A stretch of 64,000 nt of DNA from Podarcis pityusensis (lineage: Eukaryota): assembly GCA_964106645.2 (NCBI GenBank), contig OZ067042.1; one strand, 5' to 3'. The position numbers were made by a program, and so were the translations under genes. Of this stretch, positions 20,515-22,028 are shown piece by piece; the stretch's first letter is position 1; every line of letters begins with the position of its first letter. Below the pieces are notes generated by a model. It did not search any database. It had not been told where the DNA came from and saw only the letters and a list, made by a program, of their open reading frames with translations.

Positions 20515-21419
20515 CAGCAGGAGTACTGAGCGCCCTTGCGCCATCAACATTGCAATCCTACACCAGAGCATGGTCCCAATTCGAGGGGTTCAGAGATAAG
20601 TTTGGTTTACGACGCAGACGTGCAGCTAAGGAGTATGATGTTCTAAAATATTTGGTTCACCTAAAGCATAGAGGCATGGCCCTTAAGACCATCAGCCTGC
20701 ACAAGGCCGCTATCTCATACTTCAGCAACTGTTTTTGGCTCCCAGACCCCTGTAACACTTTCCACGTAAGGAAGCTTATTGCCGGGTGGCGTCGCTCCCA
20801 CCCGCCCATTCCAGATAAGAGGAGGCCAGTAACCATTGAGATCCTCCGGCTGATATGGGATGCGCTCCCCAGTATTTGCTGGTCCAACTATGAGGTTAGG
20901 CTCTTCAGGGCGGCCTTCTCCCTGGCCTTCTTTGGTGCGCTCCGTATCAGAGAGTGCGTTTGGGGCACATTGTCACCTCATCGTGGGGGCTTGTCTGTGG
21001 CTGATATCAACCTTGACAGGCGCATGCTACAAGTCAAAATCCGAGCCTCCAAAACCTATCAACTAGGTAGGGGTTCCACGCTAAGTCTAGCCTCCTCCCC
21101 ACACACTGGACCATGCCCTGTCGCGGACACACGCAAATTCCTGAAAGTACGTCCTCCAGGACCAGGCCCTCTCCTCATTCATGCATCAGGCTGCCCCATG
21201 ACCCGTTGCCAATTTGTCTCAATATTGCGTAAGGCCATCCATGCTTGTGGAGGCGACCCGGCACAATTTTCCGGGCATTCTTTTCGTATTGGTGCAGCAA
21301 TCACGGCAGCTGCAAGCGGCCTCCCGGCAGAACACATAAAAGCAATGGGGCGGTGGCGTTCAGCTGCCTTCAAAGGCTACATTAGATTCAACCAGCAGAC
21401 ACTGACAGATACCATATAA
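20511..21419 (+). CDS. Tyrosine recombinase (phage-integrase family, DIRS/Ngaro type)
   Basis: Open 302-codon frame with N-terminal LAPSTLQSY..W..F domain and catalytic set R (FFGALRIRE), K (RASKT), HxxR (GHSFRIGAA), W (GRWRS), Y (FKGYIR). True start uncertain; overlaps the RNase H stop. Confidence 0.92.
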   Translation: MTAGVLSALAPSTLQSYTRAWSQFEGFRDKFGLRRRRAAKEYDVLKYLVHLKHRGMALKTISLHKAAISYFSNCFWLPDPCNTFHVRKLIAGWRRSHPPIPDKRRPVTIEILRLIWDALPSICWSNYEVRLFRAAFSLAFFGALRIRECVWGTLSPHRGGLSVADINLDRRMLQVKIRASKTYQLGRGSTLSLASSPHTGPCPVADTRKFLKVRPPGPGPLLIHASGCPMTRCQFVSILRKAIHACGGDPAQFSGHSFRIGAAITAAASGLPAEHIKAMGRWRSAAFKGYIRFNQQTLTDTI

Positions 21420-21433
21420 TCCTTTCTTTCAGG
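21400..21433 (+). promoter_or_regulatory. Putative branch point, polypyrimidine tract and 3' splice acceptor
   Basis: CACTGAC (21400-21406) ... TCCTTTCTTTCAG|G (AG at 21431-21432); branch A is 27 nt upstream of the acceptor G. Confidence 0.6.
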
Positions 21434-22028
21434 CTCAACCCCCAAACATGTGTGGATCTTCGGCCACAGCATAGTGCATTGGGCGGCCATCCATGCCACC
21501 ACTGGTTCAGGCGGAGAACATCTGGGTCTGCAGCCAAAGATCTCCATTTCCTGGTTCGGACAACGTGGAATGTGGTGGGATGCCCTGCTCCCTCGGTTGC
21601 ATCACGAACTTGCGTTCCGCCACCCGCCAAACGCGGTTGTGCTCCACCTCGGCGAAAATGACTTGGTCGTGCGTAAAAGCATAATTCTGATCAAAACAGC
21701 GATCGCAGACCTGGAAAGCATACACACCACTCACCCCAGTATCACGATTTTCTGGTCCGAACTTCTGCCACGCTTCCCTTGGCGGGGCAACATCAAATCC
21801 ACTAGACTTAATTACACTGTGGAAAAAATCAATAGGACAGTGCGCTCTGCAACCACTCGCATGGGAGGTCGGGTCGTGAAACACCCCAACATTAAAGTTT
21901 ACATGCAGGAGCTATTTCGGTCCGATGGCGTGCACCTATCGGACCTTGGTAACGAGCATTGACTGAGCGACATCAGGCATGGCCTGATTGACTGGTTGGA
22001 GGATGGCAAAAGGGCTTTTCAGATGTAG
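21433..22028 (+). pseudogene. SGNH/GDSL-family hydrolase ORF of the YR element, with one in-frame stop
   Basis: Block I WIFGHS, block II GQRG, block III HLGENDL, block V DGVHLS. TGA at 21960-21962 is probably a mutated TGG, because the frame continues LSDIRHGLIDWLEDGKRAFQM to TAG at 22026-22028. Confidence 0.85.

Follow-up and report, generated by a model that had tools for sequence, protein, structure and literature searches.

Candidate splice sites for a start-less esterase and for the recombinase of lizard Ngaro retrotransposons

How a hydrolase frame with no start codon ahead of its catalytic serine comes to be translated is the question raised by one locus of Podarcis pityusensis. The window, that is, the whole 64,000-nucleotide stretch that was analysed (C5:84320001–84384000 of a 1.5-Gb genome), contains from 19450 to about 22400 a 5′-truncated Ngaro tyrosine-recombinase (YR) retrotransposon in which an A terminal repeat is followed by the RNase H end of pol, a YR frame and an SGNH hydrolase frame (Table 1). 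A preliminary description had proposed that the hydrolase is expressed either from a spliced subgenomic RNA, possibly as a Gag–esterase fusion, or by readthrough of the YR stop codon.

The window copy and its longer relatives

By its ORF order, by the split direct repeats of its sister copies and by the hydrolase that follows YR, as it does in amphibian-type Ngaro, the window element is classified from its sequence as a Ngaro-like YR retrotransposon, and the named proteins closest to it come from lacertids. The copy is without gag, the gag donor and RT and therefore cannot itself make a Gag–esterase fusion; its A repeat is joined to the truncated body via ∼50 unrelated bases. Sister copies L029 and L031 are longer, with gag and RT also present, and in L029 the frames run in the order gag (2887–4551), pol (4421–6151), YR (6043–7065) and hydrolase (7069–7674), overlapping at gag/pol and at pol/YR. 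B1-A2-B2 repeats were found in three copies of the same family (L028, L033 and L037), and A1 and B1-A2-B2 are 99.5–100 per cent identical in 10 of 19 full-length elements.

Table 1. Features of the truncated element in the window (all positions are those of the window; a slash within a motif, here and in the text, marks the splice junction)
Feature	Position	Strand	Basis or remark
Terminal A repeat	19450..19714	+	By-eye match to L031:1179-1446; ends approximate
3′ part of pol, RNase H-like region	19762..20514	+	tblastn to pol residues 331-577 of sister L029
YR frame, start codon not conserved	20394..21419	+	Pfam Phage_int_SAM, Phage_integrase
Candidate phase-1 splice acceptor for YR	20400..20424	+	AG 20423-20424, exon from 20425; inside RNase H codons ADALSHFQ
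Weak donor-like site GGA/GTATGA	20630..20638	+	Matches left side of 13 of 18 joined reads
Branch-point match CACTGAC	21400..21406	+	Overlaps last YR codons; YTNAY in 57/59 loci
YR stop TAA, pyrimidine tract, acceptor AG	21417..21432	+	TAA 21417-21419; AG 21431-21432
SGNH hydrolase exon, phase 1	21433..21962	+	GHS at 21462-21470; Pfam, PDB match, dN/dS

Pfam RT_RNaseH matches the pol remnant weakly (E 0.053), the Phage_int_SAM and Phage_integrase matches to YR (E 4e-4 to 3e-3) lie below cut-offs, and Lipase_GDSL_2 matches the hydrolase with E 4e-6, below its curated cut-off. The best PDB match of the hydrolase domain is 4c1b, an ORF1-encoded protein (E 9e-8), which is taken to be the ZfL2-1 esterase treated in PMC3905857.

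Many copies consist of an A repeat joined straight to a 5′-truncated body at a varying junction point (window 19450–19766; L026, L027, L035, L039, L040 and L089), an arrangement that suggests early template jumps in reverse transcription. One of these, L089, at first resembled a spliced retrocopy and proved to be an A-repeat junction with microhomology. Elsewhere in the window, a 480-codon open frame on the minus strand (62381–63823) has no Pfam match.

The hydrolase acceptor and the YR stop codon

The signals that the preliminary description had listed ahead of the hydrolase (a CACTGAC branch point, a pyrimidine tract, an AG and a phase-1 junction) are all found in the sequence. The acceptor stretch at 21420–21432 is TCCTTTCTTTCAG, the first exon base is 21433, and the translation of the frame at 21420–21962 begins SFLSG-STPKHVWIFGHS. 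The claim that no in-frame ATG precedes the catalytic serine likewise holds, the first lying at 21570, 33 codons past the serine codon (21468–21470). An early TGA leaves the window hydrolase with 180 codons as against 202 in most sister copies. Of the 24 loci in the family, 22 extend over the acceptor site and represent 20 distinct copies, all of which keep the TAA and 19 of which keep the AG; in one copy there is a deletion at the AG.

Conservation at greater distance was assessed in 64 loci, comprising 4 from this family and 60 distant ones hand-picked for variety among the 150 of 1247 protein-search candidates in the genome that were scored; the 64 loci fall into 21 clusters at 80 per cent and 11 at 70 per cent DNA identity. 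A YAG lies exactly 29 nt upstream of the Gly of GxS in 59 of the 64 loci and in 18 of the 21 clusters at 80 per cent identity, one of the 59 (L089) owing its AG to chance at the A repeat junction, and at offsets of 27, 28 or 30–35 nt an AG occurs in no locus. The five remaining loci comprise two that are decayed, one without the N-terminus and two with a shorter exon start (11 and 26 nt) that remain in phase 1. Pyrimidines make up a fraction of 0.81 of the 20 nt before the AG as against 0.45–0.53 in the exon; no AG occurs within the 20 nt upstream in 57/59 loci compared with 20/59 in the control, and a YTNAY match falls between −45 and −15 in 57/59 compared with 18/59 in the exon control.

The exon behind this acceptor appears to be translated, because it is open for at least 165 codons in 54 of the 59 loci, because its catalytic motifs are kept (Ser in 58, the RG block in 53, GxND in 52 and DG[VIT]HL in 47) and because dN/dS is 0.11–0.25 across 37 pairs of related copies, which are not independent of one another. 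Codon substitution thus places the exon under purifying selection. A start codon of its own, as judged from these sequences, cannot serve all loci: an in-frame ATG at least five codons before the Gly is absent in 29/59, in 13/59 it occurs only upstream of the AG at a varying distance, and in 17/59 it stands 6–9 codons before the Gly.

The rival proposal is that ribosomes read past the YR stop into the hydrolase and so produce a YR–hydrolase fusion. In its favour, the two frames are equal in the window family with one TAA between them, and 20 distinct copies keep this TAA. One locus, L110, whose YR contains an insertion, has an uninterrupted frame of 493 codons from part of YR into the hydrolase. 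Generally, however, the equality of frames that the preliminary description had noted in the window does not hold: after nine of the 59 loci without a usable YR end were dropped, the frame offset from YR to hydrolase is 0, 1 or 2 in 17, 22 and 11 of 50 loci and is mixed within 7 of 14 clusters. The type of YR stop codon varies, as does its distance from the AG (14–66 nt), a second stop occurs in one of the in-frame loci, and readthrough leaves the invariant AG unexplained. Given that only 17/50 loci have YR and hydrolase in one frame, readthrough is rejected as extremely improbable. A branch point, tract and AG that are kept across families (59/64) while the YR frame varies (17/50) are the pattern that the preliminary description had proposed to look for in an acceptor.

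A donor within gag and a second acceptor before YR

Twenty-three long-element loci were chosen in the search for a donor, 19 of which have an intact gag frame (8 clusters at 80 per cent and 5 at 70 per cent identity). When every gag column and phase was scored with donor weights, a phase-1 G/GTA stood at one aligned column in 19/19 gags, the next-best column reaching 10/19; no P value is attached to this donor because the column was chosen post hoc and the sequences are related. It lies 206–276 codons after the ATG, at the end of a disordered N-terminal half of Gag rich in Ser and in Lys/Arg (GagN). The sequence there is of low complexity, and the residue after the donor Gly varies (Thr, Ser or Arg), its codon always starting with A, against a background in which GGT is followed by A at 51 of 779 other Gly codons and at 14 of 223 before Thr, Ser or Arg. 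From this donor to the hydrolase acceptor the features of a U2-type intron (a conserved GT donor, branch point, pyrimidine tract, YAG and matching phase) are all present in the sequences.

Tandem duplications that arose independently in the GagN of L029/L031 and in that of L130 end at or beside the donor, and in L029/L031 the upstream duplicate is without the GT at the donor position. A search for spliced retrocopies found none beginning at the acceptor among 24 matches, and of 41 and 28 matches across the donor one ends there, being the tandem duplication inside L130. Directly before the gag ATG, 8 of 19 elements (L092, L105, L111, L112, L116, L119, L123 and L130) have pyrimidine-rich sequence and CAG/GT, which was scored as a donor and is better read as a candidate acceptor-like site; it suggests that the long 5′ leader before gag contains another intron. 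Four loose-end reads stand at L104:3469.

The first Met of YR varies widely or is absent across families, and here the splice scheme of the preliminary description, sound as regards the hydrolase acceptor, had missed a phase-1 acceptor that appears to belong to YR itself. In 21 of 22 YR frames the ADALSRFQ codons of RNase H contain a TTYCAG/AT-type site that is in phase 1 for YR, and the frame opens 19–31 nt upstream of this site. In L031 the gag donor is at 3771, the YR acceptor at 6182 and the hydrolase acceptor at 7181; in L104 the donor is at 4149 and the hydrolase acceptor at 7487. The synonymous choices at this site, counted in related sequences, are Gln CAG in 21/21 (60 per cent background), Ser TCY in 21/21 (44 per cent) and Arg CGN in 21/21, and lean toward an acceptor.

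RNA reads bear on both acceptors. Six of 24 sequencing runs were aligned, with 6–12 per cent of each raw run read. Run X1 covers the element like DNA and contains no splice joint, and coverage in X2, X5 and X21 was too thin for joints. Runs X23 and X24, which are one study of a related species and were mapped on L031, contain 18 reads that join two different upstream YR points to the exact hydrolase acceptor base of L031 (3 + 2 and 5 + 8 reads in the two runs, by upstream point), judged from the RNA runs alone, so that a genomic deletion in that organism stays an alternative source. The first mate is on the minus strand in all 18, the orientation that sense RNA should give with most strand-specific library types. 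Six further loose-end reads stand at the hydrolase acceptor in these runs, and 20 + 17 reads with foreign letters end at the YR acceptor (L031:6179). The preliminary description had suggested looking for junction reads at the hydrolase acceptor, and reads that end at the matching base do occur in the relative, but their upstream points are YR-internal and the gag junction is absent: no joint from the gag donor to either acceptor was seen on L031, where the depth of X23 and X24 over gag is zero, or on L104, where gag depth in the raw runs is ∼0–5 and acceptor depth <3.

The transcribed copy in the related species looks truncated, rearranged and decayed, and because of this and of the zero gag depth the donors of the joined reads are read as cryptic. 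The GGA/GTATGA site is accordingly treated as a cryptic donor, out of frame for the hydrolase, and one left end of the joined reads is G/AT in L031. In these two runs the decayed copy is transcribed in sense over L031:6144–7575, with a 121-nt back-joint (7430–7310); a joint from 4119 to 8121 in the second mapping, on L104, is non-canonical.

Public gene models match the predicted junctions. A search for longer hydrolase homologues brought up isoform X2 (397 aa) of Zootoca LOC118082278, which shares 207 residues with isoform X1, after which X1 continues into YR and X2 into the hydrolase. A follow-up search gave 36 proteins. In 15 of them, gene models of five lacertids (Podarcis muralis, P. raffonei, P. 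lilfordi, Lacerta agilis and Zootoca vivipara), GagN stops at the donor codon or no more than 3 residues from it and the hydrolase follows, several of them at 413–414 aa, as predicted by 223 + 1 + 190. The other 21, when compared with lacertid gags, are without this junction: 6 use YR donors, 1 uses a gag donor 8 codons farther on, some run through sequence that is intronic or of another kind, and 7 belong to distant lizards or to a frog. Among the best 120 of 392 matches in a YR protein search, 37 of at least 330 aa were examined and 7 are lacertid GagN–YR whose junction residue is Asp. A YR model of Anolis sagrei is identical over 167 residues to an unnamed hydrolase protein, after which the two split likewise. 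The introns of such models may be RNA-seq-based or ab initio, and if ab initio they reflect the same splice signal as was used here; annotation of this kind usually requires transcripts behind alternative isoforms.

Hydrolase and YR models with low-complexity N-termini also occur in Hemicordylus, Eublepharis, Pogona, Anolis and several frogs (P0033–P0039, P0081–P0155), and within lizards the N-termini of the two kinds of model are homologous (E 1e-20 and 2e-18). An extension of 100–350 aa is present in 48 of 150 representatives, 12 of which match GagN-like sequences. A Zootoca vomeronasal type-2 receptor 26-like model (P0002/P0004) runs into a hydrolase segment 80 per cent identical to the window family, possibly through host capture or as an annotation artefact.

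Splicing need not apply to YR, which lies in the −1 frame relative to pol with an overlap that extends ∼80–120 nt past the candidate acceptor and might be made there by programmed −1 ribosomal frameshifting, so that only the hydrolase would be spliced. This has been the published guess (Poulter and Butler 2015, as quoted in PMC13003380), and the ADALSRFQ codons are constrained by the protein, so that CAG could be a by-product. The invariant choice of TCY, CAG and CGN points rather to an acceptor, 37 RNA reads with foreign letters stop at its AG, and GagN–YR gene models exist; frameshifting as the sole route to YR is thus unlikely, though it could be in use together with splicing. At the gag/pol boundary, TTT_CGN is present in the gag frame 22–42 codons before the gag stop in 19/19 gags (the L029, L090–L133 set), and pol is in the +1 frame relative to gag in 17 of 18 elements with an intact pol frame, so that this motif is, from sequence, a likely candidate +1 frameshift site for Gag-Pol.

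It might also be supposed that the hydrolase acceptor is real and usually joined to another donor, either in a 5′ leader exon or inside YR, which would yield YR–hydrolase fusions or allow the esterase to start at a short-leader AUG. The only joints in reads do start at YR-internal points, 4 gene models join after KTDQ(R/G) and 2 after KGYI of YR, L031 has a strong donor just after its A repeat, and 17/59 loci have the ATG 6–9 codons before the Gly. However, the read donors sit in a truncated, rearranged copy, 29/59 loci offer no ATG to use, and the gag donor alone is conserved in 19/19 gags and in phase for both acceptors. Usual joining to other donors is on these grounds quite unlikely, as are the variants with YR–hydrolase fusions or a short-leader AUG.

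An expression programme and its known counterparts

Splicing of Gag to the esterase is supported by the conserved acceptor, the conserved gag donor, the gene models and the reads that join at the acceptor, and the fusion foreseen by the preliminary description stands with the amendment that only the N-terminal half of Gag would be used. It is very probable that unspliced RNA serves for Gag, for Gag-Pol and as template, and that the mid-gag donor is spliced to give GagN–YR or GagN–esterase. On this reading the SGNH esterase exon has its 3′ splice site at the AG of 21431–21432, and the one phase-1 donor would fuse to it a disordered, basic GagN of 206–276 aa, the same donor giving a GagN–recombinase at the second acceptor, so that GagN would supply the start codon for both enzymes. 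Unspliced RNA would yield Gag and, likely through a +1 frameshift at UUU_CGN, Gag-Pol, and would also be the template for reverse transcription. We infer the native gag junction in RNA, the resulting proteins and their roles; GagN, to judge from its basic composition only, is likely a nuclear or particle-targeting tag, and the esterase may, by analogy with ZfL2-1, act on membranes or lipids.

The Ngaro element and its hydrolase are already known, and the predicted spliced proteins are already in databases without names. Splicing as a route to YR or to the hydrolase is described nowhere in the literature that was accessible, which included passages of PMC9210276, PMC7192593, PMC9341512, PMC4495291, PMC5408684, PMC8547959, PMC6681497, PMC3783388, PMC13003380, PMC4157794 and bioRxiv 2022.06.16.496473. 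Vertebrate Ngaro elements probably follow a programme like that of complex retroviruses, not reported before for the DIRS order, in which GagN is a universal tag that is either left unspliced (Gag, Gag-Pol) or spliced to the YR or esterase acceptor. If so, the balance between proteins for packaging, for integration and for action on membranes would be set by splice choice, and host genes could capture a recombinase or esterase exon through these acceptors. Scattered copies carry strong acceptors on the sense strand, to which host transcripts can be joined. The scheme bears on how DIRS-order elements translate a start-less YR and extra ORFs. The exact junctions lead to the likely real proteins, a GagN–esterase of ∼413 aa and a GagN–YR of ∼545 aa, which alters the constructs for biochemistry, and lizard gene models labelled ‘uncharacterized’ or ‘xerD homolog’ would be explained as transposon isoforms.

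Retroviral env is expressed from spliced subgenomic RNA, and Copia-type Gag splicing removes pol and does not add exons. The Ngaro scheme resembles the env/ORF3 of LTR retrotransposons in placing a 3′ ORF on spliced subgenomic RNA, and some rotifer ORF3s are themselves GDSL esterases (PMC5408684); unlike spliced env/ORF3, the integration enzyme of Ngaro would be spliced too, and ∼220 Gag residues would be kept. As regards the Gag-Pol motif, the UUU_CGN +1 frameshift motif of amalgaviruses has its like in the Ngaro gag/pol overlap of 19/19 gags, although, set against the amalgavirus case as given in PMC5052127, the Ngaro motif is a candidate only and also encodes a conserved F-R in Gag.

The closest counterparts are the Xenopus elements DIRS-53_XT and DIRS-54_XT, Ngaro-like YR elements with an SGNH hydrolase ORF of unproven function, which like the lizard elements have Gag, RT/RH, YR and then the hydrolase, with split direct repeats A1…B1-A2-B2 (PMC9210276). 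They are described as four overlapping ORFs, and the accessible text contains no word beginning ‘splic’, whereas in the lizards GagN appears to have two alternative 3′ exons, YR and the hydrolase. The esterase ORF1p of CR1/L2/RTEX LINEs has a homologous SGNH domain, likewise behind an N-terminal structural region, but in ZfL2-1 it belongs to a single unspliced ORF1 with a coiled coil (PMC3905857), whereas in Ngaro the domain would be joined by the proposed splicing to a low-complexity basic half of Gag that is made beside full Gag.
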